DNA from: a virus | Lineage: Duplodnaviria > Heunggongvirae > Uroviricota > Caudoviricetes | IMG/VR virus record: IMGVR_UViG_2778261094_000007 | Reading direction: 5' to 3' (one strand) | DNA: 7,594 nt | Part shown: positions 1 to 7,594 of the stretch, piece after piece | How the letters are laid out: each line of letters starts with the position of its first letter | Position numbering within the stretch: position 1 is the stretch's first letter | Notes under the pieces: model-generated | What the model saw: only the letters and a program-made list of their open reading frames with translations | Database searches by the model: none | Told to the model about the DNA's origin: nothing | Program-made: the position numbers and the translations under genes

Positions 1-42
1 TAGTCTAAAAACTAGTATTAAGACTATCACTTATTTAAGTGA
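1..42. promoter_or_regulatory. Two adjacent palindromes: imperfect 26-bp palindrome (1-26, arms tagtct/agacta around actagt) and perfect 7-bp inverted repeat tcactta-tt-taagtga (27-42); candidate recombinase or repressor binding sites
   Basis: Direct reading: 1-26 matches its reverse complement at 22/26 positions; 27-33 is the exact reverse complement of 36-42. Lies immediately upstream of the decapitated integrase frame. Confidence 0.3.
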
Positions 43-242
43 TACTGGTTGTCTGGAGATTCAGGGGGCCAGTCTAAGGAGCAGCCGATCAATCTCGTCA
101 AAACTGGCTTACATGCTTAGGATCGCTCTATGAATTTGCTAAACGCCGTTATGACGGAATACCAGACAGTAACCCTTTTCACGGTCATAACCTCGAAGCA
201 CGTCGCACAATCGAGAGTTATCAACCGTTTACACCTGAACAA

Positions 243-806
243 ATGCAAAAGCTACTTGATGCAGCGGAGCCGGAGATCAGAAATATTATTTTAATGGGCT
301 TGTTTTCAGGATGCAGATTAGACGAACTGGCAAGCCTGAAAAAGTCAGAGGTTGTAACTGTGGAAGGAATACGCTGTTTTTATATCAGCAAGAGTAAGAC
401 TAAAGCAGGGATCAGACACGTTCCGATACATTCAAGACTATCGATTATTGTCGATGAATATTTAAATCATAATTATGGTGAATATTTGTTCCCTCACTCG
501 AACAAAGTAAAAAGAATCGACGGCAAGAAAGGCCCGTTCTATTCTCAAGCATTCTCACGTTTACGTCGTAGCGTCTTGCCAATCGCTACAGATAGACAAT
601 GCTTTCACAGCTTGCGCGGGATGTTTATCACTTGTCTTGATCGTGCCGGAGTGCCTGAACAGCGGATCGGAGCCATTACCGGACATACAGAGCAGAGAGC
701 TAAAACAGAAGCCTTTCGCACCTACTCACAAGGGGCAAGCATTCCAGAATTAGCTGAATATGTAGAATTAGTAAAATATGAATTAAATATTGATTTTAAG
801 GCGTAA
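243..806 (+). CDS. int: Tyrosine recombinase / phage-type integrase, C-terminal catalytic domain only (5'-truncated, probable remnant)
   Basis: Translation carries the ordered tyrosine-recombinase catalytic residues: Arg in FSGCRLDE (315-317), Lys-rich hairpin KSKTK, H-x-x-R in HSLRG (606-617), His in ITGH (684-686), Tyr in RTYSQ (723-725). The frame is open upstream to 78 and encodes linker-like sequence (LGSLYEFAKRRYDGIPDSNPF) but contains no ATG/GTG/TTG and is closed by TAA at 75-77; no Shine-Dalgarno before ATG 243. Confidence 0.8.
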   Translation: MQKLLDAAEPEIRNIILMGLFSGCRLDELASLKKSEVVTVEGIRCFYISKSKTKAGIRHVPIHSRLSIIVDEYLNHNYGEYLFPHSNKVKRIDGKKGPFYSQAFSRLRRSVLPIATDRQCFHSLRGMFITCLDRAGVPEQRIGAITGHTEQRAKTEAFRTYSQGASIPELAEYVELVKYELNIDFKA

Positions 807-814
807 AAAATCAT

Positions 815-832
815 AGGCGCTTCATTGCGCCT
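815..832 (-). terminator. Hairpin between convergent genes (aggcgc-ttcatt-gcgcct), likely intrinsic terminator for the minus-strand cluster and possibly bidirectional
   Basis: Perfect 6-bp GC-rich stem with 6-nt loop, 4 nt downstream of the 218-aa gene stop (839-837); on the minus strand it is followed after 4 nt by a run of six T (complement of A 805-810). It is also 8 nt after the integrase stop. Confidence 0.45.
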
Positions 833-836
833 TGTC

Positions 837-1493
837 CTATTTCACTTCTCCGTCATACGTCGGGAGGGTGTCTTTAGTGGTGCTGGCTGTTCCTGCATTG
901 GTTGGCACTCGGCTTTTTACCTGTCCGCCTGTGCTCTTAGGTGATGCGGTCTTTACAGCAATAGCATTAGTGGTTGCATAGCTCACCAGGCGGATTTGTT
1001 CGAACTGCAAATCGAACTGTAAAGCTGATTCTGTTTTATATTCGTAGTCAATGCCTGTCAGAATCATATTATCAAACGTCTTATGCTCTGTGCTTACAAT
1101 AATAGGCTGTCTGGCATTCATTATTTCATCAAGATAAGCAATAGCCTGTGAACACCTGTTACCGTTCACCCCTGCACTTGATAGCATATCACCACGTAAT
1201 GCTAATGGTGTTTCTGTAATAATGCCTGAAAGCATAAGTTTATTATTCTTGATCCTGACATTATCAGATACATCATTACCATCCTGCACAGGATACGATG
1301 TAACATCGGCAGAACGTGAAACCTTAGTTGCCGGAACAGCGTCAAAAGTAATAGCTTTATAACTGGCTATCGTTGATGCATTTTCGTTATTCAGGTTGCT
1401 ACATATAATGGCAAATCCGTTATCAGATTTAACCTTGCTGTTAGATGTATTAATGTTAGATGTGCTGTTGATCTGACTTTCTTTGATAGCCAT
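837..1493 (-). CDS. Hypothetical protein, 218 aa, Asn/Ser/Thr-rich low-complexity termini; possible virion or tail-associated protein (function not established)
   Basis: Long ORF; ATG at 1493 preceded by AAGGA (1507-1503) with 9-nt spacing; last gene of the co-directional cluster, ending at the terminator hairpin. Confidence 0.65.
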   Translation of the reverse strand: MAIKESQINSTSNINTSNSKVKSDNGFAIICSNLNNENASTIASYKAITFDAVPATKVSRSADVTSYPVQDGNDVSDNVRIKNNKLMLSGIITETPLALRGDMLSSAGVNGNRCSQAIAYLDEIMNARQPIIVSTEHKTFDNMILTGIDYEYKTESALQFDLQFEQIRLVSYATTNAIAVKTASPKSTGGQVKSRVPTNAGTASTTKDTLPTYDGEVK

Positions 1494-1515
1494 TTATATT
1501 AATCCTTGTGTAATG

Positions 1516-1544
1516 AGCGGAAAGCAATAAATATTGCCCCCGCT
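1516..1544 (-). promoter_or_regulatory. Nested intergenic stem-loop (outer agcgg/ccgct, inner gcaata/tattgc) between the 633-aa and 218-aa genes
   Basis: Outer 5-bp stem 1516-1520 / 1540-1544 and inner 6-bp stem 1524-1529 / 1532-1537; sits in the 73-bp gap just 5' of the 218-aa gene ribosome-binding site. No U-tract on the minus strand, so more likely an RNA processing or stability element than a terminator. Confidence 0.3.
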
Positions 1545-1566
1545 TTATTATTAGTTATCGTTAAAC

Positions 1567-3468
1567 TTAGTTAACGCTACTCTGTCCTGACAACGTGCTA
1601 AGAATCAGATTCGAACTAAACTGATTGTTGTTCGCTCTGATCTCAGTGCGGATTAAATCCTGAAAGCCGGGACCGTTAGGGATGACGTTAACAGAGATCA
1701 TATCACTCGGCACCGTAACCTGTGCATTCACGTTAACAGGGGTTGCGTATTGACGTTGTAGGCTTACAGTCGGCTGATAGGCTTCTGCTTTACGTGCAAC
1801 AAGGGTTGATCCGTAGCTGTTAGCATTGCCATTAATTAAATCAGTCCACCACCCTGGAACGCCGGACTGTGTTTCCTCACCGCGCACAATACGCCCTACA
1901 TCTCTCGTATCGAGTCCAGTTGCATAACGAATACCTTCATTGATAATCGTTGATGGCGACCATTCCCCATCTGTAACAGCGTCCATAACCTTTTGTGTCT
2001 CAGGTCGGTTATCATTCTCACCACGGCTAAGATGTTTATTAATCCAGCTTGTGATTTGATTCCCGTAAGAAGTCATAGAGGTCAGTAATACAGCGCCTTG
2101 TTTAGCCAAATCCCCGAACGATGCACCAACACCATAAGCTGCATTCTGTAAGGCTTTGCTTTCTTCCGGTTTGAGTGCTGGCATGTTGGCTATGCCATCA
2201 AAGAAGCCCAAAATAGCCTGATTCGATAGTCCATCTGTCAGACGGTCAAAGGCTGTAGCTGTCTTGTTAGCTGCGCGATATTGCTCTTTCTGTGCTTCTG
2301 TCAGTAGCTGCCCGTTGTTTTTCATATCAACCATCGTTTTACGGAACTCTTCCCCATCACGGGAAAACATCTTGAGATAATGGCTGGCATCGTCTGCTAA
2401 TGGTTCGATCAGGGATATGATGGCTTCTTTAGTCATTCCTCGGCGTTCACCTTCTCTCACCACGTCTTGTAGGAGTTGCAGCGGTCGCCCCTGGTAGGAA
2501 GCTATCTTATCTTTGTTCCATGCAAAGGCATTCTGAATATCATTTAATGATCCTTCCCCGCCTCGCCACTCTTTTTTCTTACTATCCCATTCAGCAGTTC
2601 GGCTTTGATGACCAATGCGTTCGTTTAAGTCTTTGATATTATCAGTGGTCTTGTCCGCGCTTGCACTTGATACACCGTTTGCCCTCCCCCAATTAACCAT
2701 TGCAGCCACCTGATTGCTATCGGCACCTACCAGATCGCTCATCTTCTGCAATTCCATACGTTCACGGGCTTTTTCCATTCCAGCAGATACAGCCATACTT
2801 CCTAAGCCAACGGCAGCGCCGCCGATAATGCCACCAACACCGCCCATCATTAACGCGCCACCGCCGCTAACACCTTCTTTGTGGAGCTTCTTAGCAGTAA
2901 CTGGATATACCCCCCCAGCGGCAGCATTACGACGCGTAGCAGCGGCTGCGGCTCGTCTTTCTAATGTGATGCGGTCACGGATCAGGGCATTCATCTTCGC
3001 TTGCGATATAGCGCCGGATTCATAGAGGCGGGTTTGTTCCTTAATGTAACGTAGAGCATCGTGATATTTCTTAATATCCATCCCTTCGCCATAGCGGGAA
3101 TTGTTCTTGATGCCTTGTAACTGGCGATATGATGCAAGGCGCTTGATCTCTGCCTTTTCAGCAATTGAGGCTTGTTTAGCCTGTGCTTTAGCGAGGTTTT
3201 TAGCTTCCTGTAGCTTCTGTTTAGTGCTGGCTTTAGATGCCTGTGTCTCAGATTTAACAGCCTGCTTAACATGCTGATCATGCTGGCGCTGAATCTCTTT
3301 TCCCAGCCTCTGTAAATCTTTCTGACGTGCTGCCGCCACTTGCACAGGTTTGATCCCCTGCATCTTCTTTTGTAGCTTATCCACTTCATTCTTAGCTTTC
3401 TGTAAGCTCTTGAAATCAGTGGTAAATGTCACAACATTACTAATTCGTGAGGCGTTAATTTCTAACAT
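1567..3468 (-). CDS. Large coiled-coil plus glycine-zipper membrane-segment protein, 633 aa; tape-measure-like or ejection/pilot-like protein
   Basis: 1.9-kb ORF. N-terminal ~170 aa are K/Q/A/E-rich heptad-like sequence (coiled coil); aa ~201-231 read GGGALMMGGVGGIIGGAAVGLGSMAVSAG (DNA 2776-2868), a glycine-zipper hydrophobic segment typical of tape-measure and membrane-inserting phage proteins; C-terminal ~400 aa globular. AGGGA 10 nt upstream of ATG 3468. Confidence 0.85.
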   Translation of the reverse strand: MLEINASRISNVVTFTTDFKSLQKAKNEVDKLQKKMQGIKPVQVAAARQKDLQRLGKEIQRQHDQHVKQAVKSETQASKASTKQKLQEAKNLAKAQAKQASIAEKAEIKRLASYRQLQGIKNNSRYGEGMDIKKYHDALRYIKEQTRLYESGAISQAKMNALIRDRITLERRAAAAATRRNAAAGGVYPVTAKKLHKEGVSGGGALMMGGVGGIIGGAAVGLGSMAVSAGMEKARERMELQKMSDLVGADSNQVAAMVNWGRANGVSSASADKTTDNIKDLNERIGHQSRTAEWDSKKKEWRGGEGSLNDIQNAFAWNKDKIASYQGRPLQLLQDVVREGERRGMTKEAIISLIEPLADDASHYLKMFSRDGEEFRKTMVDMKNNGQLLTEAQKEQYRAANKTATAFDRLTDGLSNQAILGFFDGIANMPALKPEESKALQNAAYGVGASFGDLAKQGAVLLTSMTSYGNQITSWINKHLSRGENDNRPETQKVMDAVTDGEWSPSTIINEGIRYATGLDTRDVGRIVRGEETQSGVPGWWTDLINGNANSYGSTLVARKAEAYQPTVSLQRQYATPVNVNAQVTVPSDMISVNVIPNGPGFQDLIRTEIRANNNQFSSNLILSTLSGQSSVN

Positions 3469-3502
3469 GTTAATTGTTTCCCTGTATTATGATTGTTGTT
3501 TG

Positions 3503-3700
3503 TTATTGTTTTTTAAAGCAATAATATTGGATTGCCTCAAAAGTGCTGCATCCAGTCTGAAAGACACGCTGCCGCACATTATTCGAATCAATTGAAAGCA
3601 TTCTGCATAAGGCACTGACATTGATTATTGAGTCATCGCTAATAGCTGCCAGTTCTTTTACAGATTTAAGAATTAATGCCTGTGAATTTTCTGTGTTCAT
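3503..3700 (-). CDS. Small hypothetical protein, 65 aa
   Basis: ORF in the same orientation between the capsid-like and 633-aa genes; ATG at 3700 preceded by a purine-rich GAGAGAAAA stretch; non-low-complexity composition. Short, so uncertain. Confidence 0.45.
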   Translation of the reverse strand: MNTENSQALILKSVKELAAISDDSIINVSALCRMLSIDSNNVRQRVFQTGCSTFEAIQYYCFKKQ

Positions 3701-3826
3701 TGGTTTTCTCTCACATATATATTTTTATTTGGGTTTGTAGACAGTAGAAAAACAAAAAAGGGCAAGAGACAGCGCATATTTTGCTTATATGATTATCCCT
3801 TACCCTTATTGCCCCGATTATTTCCA

Positions 3827-3843
3827 GACGATGGGGAATCGTC
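3827..3843 (-). promoter_or_regulatory. Stem-loop gacgat-gggga-atcgtc 13 nt downstream of the capsid-like gene stop; candidate partial terminator or mRNA 3'-stabilising hairpin
   Basis: Perfect 6-bp stem with 5-nt loop read directly; not followed by a U-run on the minus strand, so not a canonical intrinsic terminator. Confidence 0.3.
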
Positions 3844-3856
3844 TATTAACGCTTTA

Positions 3857-4888
3857 TTACGCAGCAGATCCGAAGATGATAGCTTGCGGAATGTTGTTTA
3901 CTGGCAGATAAGATGTCTCAGTAACCACAGATGGGAATTGGAATTCATCCTTGATTAGATATTGGTGATGTAACACGGCATCTTGACCTAACTCAGCATG
4001 ACGCACACCAACGCCGCTATGAAGCTGGTAACACTGTGCCGCTTTATCCATTACCGGAACAATTGCGAAACCGTTCTCTCCGATGTGAGCAACAATCTCA
4101 GGAAACATTGACACGTCAATAACAGTGATCCCACCAATCTGGAAAGAGTCATAGGCTGGGTTAGAATCAACCATACGGGTAAACAGGGCCGTAGCACTCG
4201 CATCGCCTGCATATTTCACCATGTCACTGATCAGCGGGTTAGATGACAAACCATCAGCAGCAGCGCCAGCAGCAAAGATAATTACACCAGTTCGCTTTGC
4301 AGCAAGACCAGACCCCAGCTTTTCACTCTGTAAGCGCACCGCTTTACGAATAGCAAGGAACGGGTTAACAGTAGTCGATGCAAAGTCGATAGCGGGTACC
4401 GTGGTTTTAGCCTGACCGTCGAGGAAGTCGAGATCACCTTGTCCGGCATATTCAGATTCAACTTTCAGGCCCAGCAGCGCGGTAATCAGATCCACTTCAA
4501 CACGGTTTGCGTGTGAACGGTAATGAGCCTCAGAGAAATCATTAACCGCTACCAGCATAGCATCAGAACGGTTTGGATATTGGCGGCTGTATTGTTCCAG
4601 GTCACGAGAAGTAACAGCGTTAATACTGCCGACGTGTTTCATCTGGAAAAGTTTGTTTGACCATTCCTGACGTTTAGAGGCGTTCCAGTCGCTTTGAGCG
4701 TAAGGCGAGGTTTCCCCAGCTACCTGCACAAACTGATCGATCAGGTCGGTAAGAAGAATGCTGTTTTCTGTATGATATTGCACATCGAACAGATCGAGAT
4801 TAGTAATCAGGGTATTAAGTGCATTCTCATAAGCAAAAGGAGTTACTACCGCAGTATTAACGCCAAAATATGTTGATAAATCATTCAT
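3857..4888 (-). CDS. Putative major capsid protein, 343 aa (size and position compatible with a lambda gpE-type capsid protein; assignment by context only)
   Basis: Long ORF with a strong ribosome-binding site (AAGGAAAATAATA-ATG), directly downstream of a ~127-aa Ala/Val-rich gene in the decoration-then-capsid order seen in lambda (gpD 110 aa, gpE 341 aa); low Cys, rich in A/V/S/T/D. No sequence-level identity to lambda gpE could be confirmed by eye. Confidence 0.8.
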   Translation of the reverse strand: MNDLSTYFGVNTAVVTPFAYENALNTLITNLDLFDVQYHTENSILLTDLIDQFVQVAGETSPYAQSDWNASKRQEWSNKLFQMKHVGSINAVTSRDLEQYSRQYPNRSDAMLVAVNDFSEAHYRSHANRVEVDLITALLGLKVESEYAGQGDLDFLDGQAKTTVPAIDFASTTVNPFLAIRKAVRLQSEKLGSGLAAKRTGVIIFAAGAAADGLSSNPLISDMVKYAGDASATALFTRMVDSNPAYDSFQIGGITVIDVSMFPEIVAHIGENGFAIVPVMDKAAQCYQLHSGVGVRHAELGQDAVLHHQYLIKDEFQFPSVVTETSYLPVNNIPQAIIFGSAA

Positions 4889-4902
4889 TATTATTTTCCT
4901 TG

Positions 4903-5286
4903 TTAAGTCGTAGGGATCGCAAGTTCTTCATAACCAGCAATTACAAAGCCGAGAGATTGCAGTTTTGCAATAACACTTGCCTTTTCCATGCTGTTAAATT
5001 CAATCCCATCTTCAGCCAGAATAACGAAAGTAGGATGTGCAACCACTACGCTTTCCTGTCCTTCATAAGCCGGTTCAACTACTACGTGAGCAATATCAGA
5101 TGCAGTTGTTGCTTTGGTGCCATCGGCTTTCAGCAAAGCCCCGACAATAAGATCGTCAGTGAGAGGTGAAGCCAGTTTGACGAGGCGATCTTGCAGCACT
5201 GGATCAGCAGCGTAAGCTACTACCTTACAGCGTGAACGGGAATTATCCGCATTCACTGCTTTTAATTTTCCATATGGGTTAGCCAT
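4903..5286 (-). CDS. Putative head decoration protein, 127 aa (lambda gpD-like by size, position and loose motif resemblance)
   Basis: ORF immediately upstream of the capsid-like gene (14-nt gap) with the same AAGGAAAATAAT initiation motif; segments SRCKVVAYAAD and GALLKADGT loosely resemble lambda gpD SRKLVAW and GILAVAADQ. Low-confidence function. Confidence 0.75.
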   Translation of the reverse strand: MANPYGKLKAVNADNSRSRCKVVAYAADPVLQDRLVKLASPLTDDLIVGALLKADGTKATTASDIAHVVVEPAYEGQESVVVAHPTFVILAEDGIEFNSMEKASVIAKLQSLGFVIAGYEELAIPTT

Positions 5287-5290
5287 AAGA

Positions 5291-5488
5291 TTATTTTCCT
5301 TTCAGTTGTTTAATTTTAGATTTAAGGGCATCAGCAAGACTAACCGCATCAGCCGATTTAAATAATTGGGCAGTGGTAGAACGAAGACTTTCGGGAGTAA
5401 CTCCCAACAGTGCGGCAACCTTAATGAGGTTTTCATCACTAACAATCATCGTTTCCCCGTCTTTGCTGATAATCATTTCTTGTTTCAT
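5291..5488 (-). CDS. Small hypothetical protein, 65 aa from ATG 5488 (the ORF track extends to a TTG at 5530); first gene of the structural cluster
   Basis: ATG at 5488 is preceded by AGGAA with ~9-nt spacing, whereas the TTG at 5530 has no Shine-Dalgarno and adds a hydrophobic extension that overlaps the upstream hairpin. Its TAA stop (5293-5291) lies inside the ribosome-binding site of the next gene. Confidence 0.6.
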   Translation of the reverse strand: MKQEMIISKDGETMIVSDENLIKVAALLGVTPESLRSTTAQLFKSADAVSLADALKSKIKQLKGK

Positions 5489-5520
5489 AAATAACGTTCC
5501 TGTTAGTGCCAGACAAATAA

Positions 5521-5568
5521 AAAGCCCCAATGCCGTAAGAGGTTAATTCTGACCAGCAAAGGGGCTTT
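5521..5568 (-). terminator. Terminator-like hairpin (stem aaagcccc / ggggcttt, ~32-nt loop) followed on the minus strand by UUUUUAUUUG, ending ~30 nt upstream of the first structural gene
   Basis: 8-bp stem arms at 5521-5528 and 5561-5568 read directly; minus-strand sequence downstream of the stem is ggggctttttatttg. The unusually long loop lowers confidence. Confidence 0.35.
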
Positions 5569-6425
5569 AACGTGCGGGCAATTACATAATTGATAAGTTA
5601 AACTATAAGAGGATTAAACATATCAGCAAATACACTTTTTAAATATACTTGATGATATGCTTAAAGGGTGAATAGATACTCCTGAAAACATGCTCTTAGG
5701 AAAACATGCGGAATCAATCAGGAATATCTATTCGGGGCGCGGTGGCCAACCGCTATCTTTCATGGTGTGGATGCACCAGTCAGATTTTAAGGAATCACTA
5801 TTCCAATCTACTCACAGATTAAATTTTTAATAATGATTAACTACACCAACAGTAATCTACCGTTTCAGAAAATCGTTTTTACAACCAAAGCTTATAGATC
5901 CGCATTCTATAAAACCCGTTTTGCTATCAATATTTCCAAAGTTTATTGCACCATTCTTAGCTAAACTCTCTCTGCTTGCGGCTAACGCTATGCAGATGAT
6001 TGTTTTTGACAACAACTTAATAGATTATTCTGTTACTAACTTCTGTCATTAAATAATAGTTTAATGATGTTAGTAAATAGTTATAAAATATAACTATCAG
6101 TGTAAGGCTCTTTAATGTTTTCTGACAAAATAAGGAGCTTTAGGATAAGCATAGATGAAAAATAAGAGCGGGAAGGGCAAGGAGATAACACCTACCCGCT
6201 TTTATCAAAATTAAGCACAATGCCTAACAACATTCATCAACACAACGTAGAAACAATCAACAATCAAAGAGGGAGTTATGATTATTCTAAAACTTCTTGA
6301 GAGATGGAAGGTAATATTTGTTAGAGGTTAATGCCACTCAACCTTTGAGGCTATCACCTTCCATATGCAGGGATTTATGACAGTAGAAGGATTAACACCA
6401 GTCAAAACCTTTTTATCTACCCCTA

Positions 6426-6445
6426 ATTTCATTATATAATGAAAT
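6426..6445. promoter_or_regulatory. Perfect 20-bp palindrome atttcattat-ataatgaaat; candidate operator or protein-binding site
   Basis: Sequence equals its own reverse complement over 20 bp; lies 28 bp downstream of the 102-aa gene stop in the AT-rich spacer; related ttcattat repeated at 6466-6473. Confidence 0.3.
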
Positions 6446-6472
6446 TGTTATAAATGCAAATGATTTTCATTA

Positions 6473-6781
6473 TCACTTAGAAGAAATAGCACTTTTTGCT
6501 AAATCATCTACTAATTGCTGAATCTCTTCACTTGCAGCCTTTAACGTGCTGGCGGTGTCTGTGATGATTTGAGTGCACAGCCTGGCATCGTCCTCTGATA
6601 GCTCTAAATCGCTCACCAGAGAGATAAAATCGTCAAGGCTTACATTCACCTTCATTAAGCTAATAACGCATTGAGAGAGCGTGTAATCGCATAAATCTGA
6701 ATAGGCTTGATTTATTCTTGTTTGTAGTGAGATAGTCAGATCTAAAAGTTGTTCCATTGCATTGCTAATATCTTCTTCCAT
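6473..6781 (-). CDS. Small strongly acidic hypothetical protein, 102 aa
   Basis: ORF with AAGGAG ~10 nt upstream of ATG 6781; its start overlaps the stop of the upstream gene (TAATG, 6783-6779), indicating translational coupling; composition is strongly acidic (many D/E, few K/R). Confidence 0.7.
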   Translation of the reverse strand: MEEDISNAMEQLLDLTISLQTRINQAYSDLCDYTLSQCVISLMKVNVSLDDFISLVSDLELSEDDARLCTQIITDTASTLKAASEEIQQLVDDLAKSAISSK

Positions 6782-7026
6782 TATGCGGCTTCTCCTTGTA
6801 ATGCATCATTAATCATATTCAATACGATGTTAAAAGGTGTCTTGAGCGTCAGCACTTCATCACGATAACGCTCTAATGCTTCGTAGTCTTCTGTTTCTTT
6901 TGCCAGTCGGATTAACTCAGCATAGTTTTTTGCATCAGACAGGATCATCTGAAATAATTGTGTTTCTTGAATATAGCCAATCATTATTTTTCCTTTTTCG
7001 AATATTTTCATTGGGCGCTTATACAT
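6781..7026 (-). CDS. Small hypothetical protein, 81 aa (alternative start at ATG 6984 giving 67 aa)
   Basis: ORF inside the coupled operon; ATG 7026 has only a weak GGGTG upstream, whereas the in-frame ATG at 6984 is preceded by AAAAAGGAAAAATA, a strong Shine-Dalgarno resembling that of the capsid-cluster genes. Confidence 0.65.
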   Translation of the reverse strand: MYKRPMKIFEKGKIMIGYIQETQLFQMILSDAKNYAELIRLAKETEDYEALERYRDEVLTLKTPFNIVLNMINDALQGEAA

Positions 7027-7041
7027 ACACCCATCATTTTA

Positions 7042-7500
7042 TTAGTTAGAACGTTTGTTAGAAGCTAATGTATCTTCTAAATGAGCCATCAGATCGACTT
7101 CCGATGCACCACCTACACAATTATTGAAAGCGTTAAATCCCAAAAAATGATGATAGGAGCTAAACCCTAAAAGCTGCCAACGTTTCAGAGTGCCATCAGA
7201 AATGATAGTTTGTTTTCTTGTTCTTGGGCGAAAGTAAACGCCTGGCATTGACTGGATTATTTCTAATTCTTCATCGCTTAATTCAGGGGATTCTGCTTCA
7301 AGAATAAATATTATCTCTTCCCCTGGAATTTCGTTATTGGTGTGTGTCGGTGGACGTTGTCTTGTTGAATTGAAGTTACTGTTTTTTTCAATACGTTTTA
7401 AGTTATTACGTTTCTTTTTCCCATTTTCCCTCTTTTTATGTGGATTATAAAAACTTAATGTCATTGTTACGATGAATATCGCCATAAATGCATTTGCCAT
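7042..7500 (-). CDS. Hypothetical protein, 152 aa: N-terminal hydrophobic segment, Lys/Arg/Asn-rich linker, acidic stretch, C-terminal domain
   Basis: 459-nt ORF in ~30% GC DNA where stop codons are frequent; N-terminus AFMAIFIVTMTLSFY is hydrophobic (possible membrane anchor or signal), followed by KKRENGKKKRNNLKR. No clear Shine-Dalgarno before ATG 7500, so the start is uncertain. Confidence 0.55.
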   Translation of the reverse strand: MANAFMAIFIVTMTLSFYNPHKKRENGKKKRNNLKRIEKNSNFNSTRQRPPTHTNNEIPGEEIIFILEAESPELSDEELEIIQSMPGVYFRPRTRKQTIISDGTLKRWQLLGFSSYHHFLGFNAFNNCVGGASEVDLMAHLEDTLASNKRSN

Positions 7501-7594
7501 ATGTATTGCCCGATCTGGGTAATGACTCCAACTTATTGATAGTGTTTTATGTTCAGATAATGCCCGATGACTTTGTCATGCAGCTCCACCGATT

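Follow-up and report, generated by a model that had tools for sequence, protein, structure and literature searches.

The palindromic left edge of a prophage-like contig is very probably an IS2 end lying within an integrase gene

The viral contig analyzed here (7,594 nucleotides in full, hereafter the window) opens with about 80 bases in which two palindromes and a twice-occurring heptamer, AGTCTAA, directly precede an integrase gene whose N-terminal part is missing. A first-pass annotation had taken this arrangement for a recombination junction, either the core or the arm sites of an att site, or for an operator, located exactly where the integrase frame is broken. What are these bases, and why does the integrase begin where it does? 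We hold with high confidence that window bases 1 to 76 are the left end of an IS2 copy in inverted orientation, inserted at codon 164 of a prophage-type integrase gene. The features on which the argument turns are listed below; positions are those of the window.

1 to 76, minus strand: IS2 left end (IS3 family), assigned by sequence identity, IS2 nt 76 down to 1
1 to 26, no strand: imperfect palindrome, IS2 nt 51 to 76, in which ACTAGT is framed by the −10 hexamer of PIRL (TAGTCT) and a second TAGACT
21 to 29, minus strand: extended −10 of the promoter PIRL, TGATAGTCT, IS2 nt 48 to 56, spanning the overlap of both palindromes
25 to 44, no strand: perfect 20-bp palindrome TATCACTTA-TT-TAAGTGATA, IS2 nt 33 to 52, a dyad around the repressor site of OrfA (InsA)
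35 to 76, minus strand: IRL, the 42-bp inverted repeat that terminates IS2 on the left, with its transposase-binding and cleavage domains (PMC3299598, PMC3219604)
71 to 76, minus strand: IS2 terminal hexamer TAGACT with TA at the end, contributing six bases to the second AGTCTAA copy
75 to 77, plus strand: TAA stop, made of the IS2 terminal TA and the third base of integrase codon 164
77 to 81, plus strand: AGGAG, the presumed IRL-side copy of a 5-bp target-site duplication
78 to 806, plus strand: codons 165 to 406 of a tyrosine recombinase (integrase) gene, a 3′ fragment that retains the catalytic domain in full and the last part of the SAM-like domain

The sequence elements reported at 1 to 80 are genuinely present. 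The imperfect palindrome at 1 to 26 consists of two arms without a spacer (1 to 13 and 14 to 26) that are complementary at 11 of 13 positions, and the perfect one, initially placed at 27 to 42, extends two bases further on each side, so that it has 9-nt arms around a 2-nt center. Chance expectation was estimated from dinucleotide-preserving shuffles of bases 1 to 80. Perfect palindromes with 9-nt or longer arms arose in 4 of 2000 shuffles and palindromes of two 13-nt arms with at least 11 matches in 8 of 3000; since so few shuffles match either one, both palindromes are unlikely to be there by chance in 80 nt. When the whole 7.6-kb window was shuffled instead, a palindrome with 9-nt arms appeared somewhere in 37 of 200 shuffles. 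AGTCTAA does occur at 2 to 8 and at 71 to 77, with no further copy in the window, and the TAA at 75 to 77 lies in frame with the integrase, whose open frame runs from 78 to the stop at 804 to 806. As a motif in its own right, the heptamer was rejected, because some repeated 7-mer is found in 463 of 3000 shuffles of the same 80 bases (15%) and one base of the second copy derives from the target: its last A (base 77) belongs to the integrase gene, and the other six bases belong to IS2.

The identity of the left edge emerged from comparison with complete E. coli genomes. Megablast of window bases 1 to 400 against 5,426 of them gave matches that split at base 76/77. The first 76 bases alone were found in 4,676 of the 5,426 genomes, at 20,749 places in all (median 3 per genome), with 100% identity among the matches listed; 17,034 of the places are chromosomal and 3,715 are on plasmids, and the flanking genes vary from place to place, as is typical of a dispersed multicopy element. 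In annotated records, the block stands directly 5′ of a CDS named “IS3-like element IS2 family transposase,” and an unrelated host feature begins one base beyond its other side; other IS2 copies are annotated with a frameshifted transposase. Read from an annotated copy (TAGACTGGCCCCCTGAATCTCCAGAC...), IS2 nt 1 to 76 are the exact reverse complement of window 1 to 76, and a window coordinate is thus 77 minus the IS2 coordinate. The orfA ATG lies 15 nt past the block, just beyond the left edge of the window.

The features published for the IS2 left end were all found at their published positions, namely a 42-bp IRL ending in TA (35 to 76) and, just inside it, the OrfA site TAAATAA (31 to 37) and the extended −10 TGATAGTCT (21 to 29). 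Nothing of substance sets the window apart from IS2: all 76 nt are identical to the annotated copy, and the IRL agrees at 41 of 42 positions with the sequence printed in PMC3219604, the one difference being G for A at IS2 nt 32, a common variant. Of IS2, the window carries only these 76 nt. Outside it lie orfA and orfB, which encode a DDE transposase by way of a programmed −1 frameshift, as well as the right inverted repeat and the duplicated target site. The IS2 left end itself is already known, and the insertion site is new but unremarkable.

On the other side of the junction, the sequence behaves in an entirely different manner. Bases 77 to 400 form part of a single-copy gene, annotated as “tyrosine-type recombinase/integrase,” in 181 of the 5,426 complete genomes, and among the matches listed they are 100% identical to loci encoding WP_001296954.1. 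Homology with these 181 genomes, in which the integrase is uninterrupted, begins exactly at base 77. Window 77 to 7517 is collinear with, and 99.9% identical to, a locus of E. coli strain 503025, where the integrase (WP_001296954.1) is intact with 406 aa and comprises a DUF6538 domain, a SAM-like core-binding domain (residues 117 to 188), and the catalytic domain. The SAM-like assignment is a weak Pfam match (20.4 bits, below the cut-off of 22.3). The fragment retained in the window still matches Pfam Phage_integrase (E = 5e-13), and its first start codon is an ATG at 243. The IS2 sequence ends directly before the third base of codon 164 (CGA, Arg; locus 8999 to 9001 in strain 503025), a point inside the SAM-like domain. 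Thus, the first-pass annotation was right that the frame is broken here and that 76/77 is a true recombination junction. The stop at 75 to 77 is an accident of that junction, in which the TA of IS2 meets one base of the integrase.

A separate interruption of the same integrase was noticed in a long-read ENA contig (ERZ27273522, contig_3206_polypolish, about 2822 to 3000). There the gene is split into ORFs of 159 aa and 187 aa with no IS; one extra T (TTCTTTAGATG versus TTCTTAGATG) accounts for the split, and this may be a real frameshift or a homopolymer sequencing error.

Could the junction nevertheless be an attachment site, with block 1 to 80 serving as attL/attR core or arm sites of the neighboring integrase at an island boundary? 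The resemblance to phage and island att sites is clear enough, as a recombination junction with inverted repeats lies beside a tyrosine recombinase gene. However, the breakpoint falls within the integrase coding sequence at codon 164 rather than at an element/host boundary outside it, and in related strains with an intact gene the integrase runs straight through this point. An att core is expected to be specific and repeated at the other end of its element, whereas the 76-nt block is spread genome-wide and at all of its 20,749 places is an IS2 end, that is, part of an element moved by a DDE transposase. The motifs recur nowhere else in the window. In the strain 503025 locus, the palindromes are found only within that strain's own IS2 copy, 4 kb away in another gene and not at an island edge. 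A tRNA search of the window and the related 18-kb locus, aimed at a tRNA-linked att site, returned none. We therefore regard the attachment-site proposal as almost certainly wrong; at 76/77, the left inverted repeat of IS2 meets its target with its outer tip. The correct annotation is an IS2 end disrupting an integrase gene and not an att site, a correction of little import beyond annotation.

The same proposal held that the integrase N-terminal domain is missing at this point, and an intact N-terminus continuing in frame directly upstream would have spoken against a genuine break. What lies upstream can be read from a public draft contig (PGCD01000073.1 of GCA_009869705.1; 7,616 nt), which has the identical junction and, beyond it, 119 nt that match IS2 perfectly and include the orfA start. 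Since this contig runs into IS2, the sequence upstream of the window is IS2 and not integrase. The window lacks the N-terminal part because IS2 intervenes and the contig stops inside it. A full-length IS2 followed by the 5′ half of the integrase would then lie just beyond the left edge, and a simple insertion would read ...CAACGAGGAG / TGGATTTGCCCC...IS2...CCAGTCTA / AGGAGCAGCC. Most likely, the “missing” domain is not lost but sits about 1.3 kb further left. The insertion has probably inactivated the integrase of this small prophage-like element and so locked the element in place in this strain.

A less orderly history can also be considered, in which what lies left of the junction is an incomplete IS2 or the product of a deletion or inversion mediated by IS2, and the integrase 5′ half has been deleted or is located elsewhere. 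IS-rich genomes often carry IS-mediated deletions and inversions, and the window breaks off within an IS element on either side. Furthermore, an exact-pattern scan of metagenome contigs for the predicted IRR-side junction, with its AGGAG duplication, gave no match. On the other hand, IS2 ends here at its precise terminal nucleotide, as it does after transposition, and the related draft contig carries at least 119 nt of perfect IS2. Simple insertion is also the commonest outcome, and the same element in another strain offers a clean example with a 5-bp duplication. Taken together, these points make a rearrangement unlikely, and a simple insertion of IS2 remains the preferred explanation.

The clean example is found in strain 503025, where another IS2 copy (locus 13176 to 14505, corresponding to window 4251/4252) interrupts the 343-aa head-like gene of the element and is flanked by the 5-bp duplication CAAAC. 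With this second site, IS2 has struck the element in at least two independent events.

The window has the appearance of a short-read contig, which raises the question of whether its left edge is a chimeric join of an IS2 read end to an integrase fragment. Its two ends carry 76 nt of IS2 and 77 nt of IS1, and the contig is thus bounded by repeats. The exact IS2-integrase junction is present in none of the 5,426 complete E. coli genomes, and an exact-pattern scan of viral contigs for the window's own IRL-side junction gave no match. Yet the join falls precisely where IS2 ends, and the public NCBI draft contig shows this junction too, with a different length of IS2, although that contig is possibly not independent of the source of the window. 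De Bruijn assemblers would be expected to leave about k−1 to k repeat bases at contig ends without making false joins. An assembly artefact is accordingly very improbable. We infer instead that the window is a whole short-read contig, broken at repeats by a de Bruijn assembly with k of about 77.

The right edge fits this description and is listed here with the genes that lie between the integrase fragment and the IS1 end.

837 to 1493, minus strand: Dit-like tail protein, downstream of the integrase fragment
1567 to 3468, minus strand: tape-measure-like protein (PHROG E = 1e-72)
3857 to 4888, minus strand: major-head-like protein, a weak match
7518 to 7594, no strand: IS1 end, 77 nt (GGTAATGACTCC...), beginning where collinearity with the strain 503025 locus stops at 7517

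The 77 nt at the right edge match regions annotated as “IS1-like element IS1A family transposase” at 71,621 places. Relative to strain 503025, this IS1 end is inserted at an intergenic spot.

If the left edge is an IS2 end, the palindromes should find their meaning in IS2 biology. The 42-bp IRL is bound by the transposase and terminates in TA-3′ rather than in the usual CA-3′, which makes it the recipient end (PMC3299598, PMC3219604). When the ends of the IS2 minicircle abut, this TA-3′ creates the Pribnow box of a strong promoter, Pjunc (PMC3219604). Judged from its position in the sequence, the tip hexamer TAGACT may be read as that Pribnow box. In the window, then, the stretch from 35 to 76 would be bound by transposase, and its tip would supply the −10 box of the junction promoter upon circularization of IS2.

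OrfA (InsA, 14 kDa) is a repressor that docks at 5′-TAAATAA-3′, and its footprint protects IS2 nt 39 to 48 (PMC3299598, which credits the demonstration of binding to Hu et al. 1994). TGAT at IS2 bp 48 to 51 opens the extended −10 of PIRL, a weak promoter (PMC3299598). TAAATAA (IS2 nt 40 to 46, window 31 to 37) forms the exact center of the perfect palindrome. PIRL reads away from the integrase and drives orfA and orfAB leftward, out of the window. A consensus promoter scan over the IS2 end returned nothing; since PIRL is an extended −10 promoter lacking a −35 box, no consensus match was to be expected.

Because the published OrfA site and PIRL map onto it, the operator reading is correct for the palindrome at 25 to 44. 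Of the two functions initially suggested for the block, the operator therefore stands for this palindrome and att falls, and the operator serves IS2's own OrfA repressor (PMC3299598) and is unrelated to the integrase. In the proposed scheme, OrfA would dock at the dyad operator and repress the adjacent weak promoter PIRL, and the imperfect palindrome at 1 to 26 would represent the −10 hexamer together with the first part of the orfA leader. The second TAGACT (IS2 nt 70 to 75, window 2 to 7) does lie within this leader.

Comparable arrangements exist in other insertion sequences. In IS1, InsA acts at the inverted repeats of its own element, a parallel to OrfA of IS2. A second parallel, with IS30, whose truncated transposase acts over its own promoter, has been drawn by the authors of PMC3299598. 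Common to all three is a small helix-turn-helix product of the element that binds at or beside a terminal repeat and thereby overlaps the transposase promoter, but IS1 and IS30 belong to other families and have other sequences. OrfA of IS911, also of the IS3 family, lacks a repressor function (PMC3299598).

Neither PMC3299598 nor PMC3219604 mentions a palindrome or dyad at the IS2 left end. To see how far the symmetry is kept, we gathered IS2-like left ends from plasmids and genomes of Klebsiella, Pantoea, Scandinavium, Superficieibacter, Erwinia, Rahnella, Providencia, and Aeromonas, in which identity falls as low as 82% for OrfA and about 75% for DNA. The dyad core is kept in the 13 left ends compared, which come from six or more genera. 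Five pairs at the core of the dyad are complementary in nearly all 13. Compensatory changes were seen at two of the nine pairs: CAC/GTG is replaced by CTC/GAG in Aeromonas as well as in a Klebsiella element of 75% identity, and TA has become CG at another pair in Aeromonas. In one E. coli variant, the two center bases are inverted and read TT instead of AA, and the Rahnella element has lost one center base with the arms kept. Overall, 87% of the dyad cells are paired, versus 27 to 51% when the partner column is slid. The covariation score exceeds that of all 500 shuffles, in a set of 13 related sequences with few independent changes and against a control that ignores relatedness.

Symmetry, overlap with the extended −10, and paired changes, as anticipated for a repressor operator, are thus observed here, and protein binding is taken from PMC3299598. 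The comparative check is supportive but not decisive, the sample being small and its sequences related. The imperfect palindrome is near-invariant in enterobacterial relatives and partly kept in Aeromonas and in the 75%-identical Klebsiella relative. As a functional unit it is unproven; its symmetry may follow from the presence of the −10 hexamer and of another hexamer much like it.

Going one step further, we suggest tentatively, and with rather less than even confidence, that TAAATAA may be only the center of a 20-bp operator for an OrfA dimer, with half-sites TATCAC/GTGATA conserved by compensatory change between Escherichia and Aeromonas. As part of the same tentative suggestion, IS2 nt 51 to 76 might be a second, hitherto undescribed control site, acting as a protein site or as an RNA hairpin in transcripts from the junction promoter. 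If true, a larger dyad operator would refine known IS2 biology and would not amount to a new kind of system. That the OrfA operator of IS2 is a conserved dyad would be a minor point for IS biology.

Folding of the RNA from IS2 nt 1 to 120 paired UCUCCA in the IRL (nt 18 to 23) with the UGGAGA Shine-Dalgarno sequence (nt 82 to 87) with z = −3.2. The two strands of this helix lie at 13193 to 13198 and 13257 to 13262 of the strain 503025 locus, and the window contains it in part (54 to 59). A fold-back in read-through transcripts, by which IRL nt 18 to 23 would sequester the orfA Shine-Dalgarno sequence, was rejected as a candidate: it is predicted for E. coli IS2 and is absent from the consensus fold of the 13 relatives.

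IS2-like sequences also turned up in assemblies of Streptosporangium, Paenisporosarcina, Lamprocystis, and Brevibacterium, as contigs of 0.5 to 1.5 kb whose OrfA is 95 to 100% identical to that of E. coli IS2. Most likely, such IS2 contigs in non-enterobacterial assemblies reflect contamination from E. coli-derived reagents or cloning hosts and not horizontal transfer.

As for the element that carries the interrupted integrase, the other ORFs tested downstream of the integrase fragment matched no family. Megablast of window 77 to 7517 against phage genomes (50,697 phage records) gave no DNA match. PADLOC defense models found nothing in nine ORFs of the window, nor did an Rfam scan of the window yield anything. 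In strain 503025, the element adjoins a type III secretion (ETT2-like) gene cluster. It is a small, uncharacterized cryptic prophage or satellite-like element beside the ETT2 region.

Two further palindromes were observed within the element, in an ORF-poor stretch of about 940 nt (5547 to 6472). A perfect one of 22 nt, AATTTCATTATATAATGAAATT, lies at 6425 to 6446, where it overlaps a −10 element (TATAAT) belonging to a promoter-like minus-strand site; the second, ATAGTTATA-AAA-TATAACTAT, lies at 6077 to 6097. Both may be operators of the element's own regulatory region.
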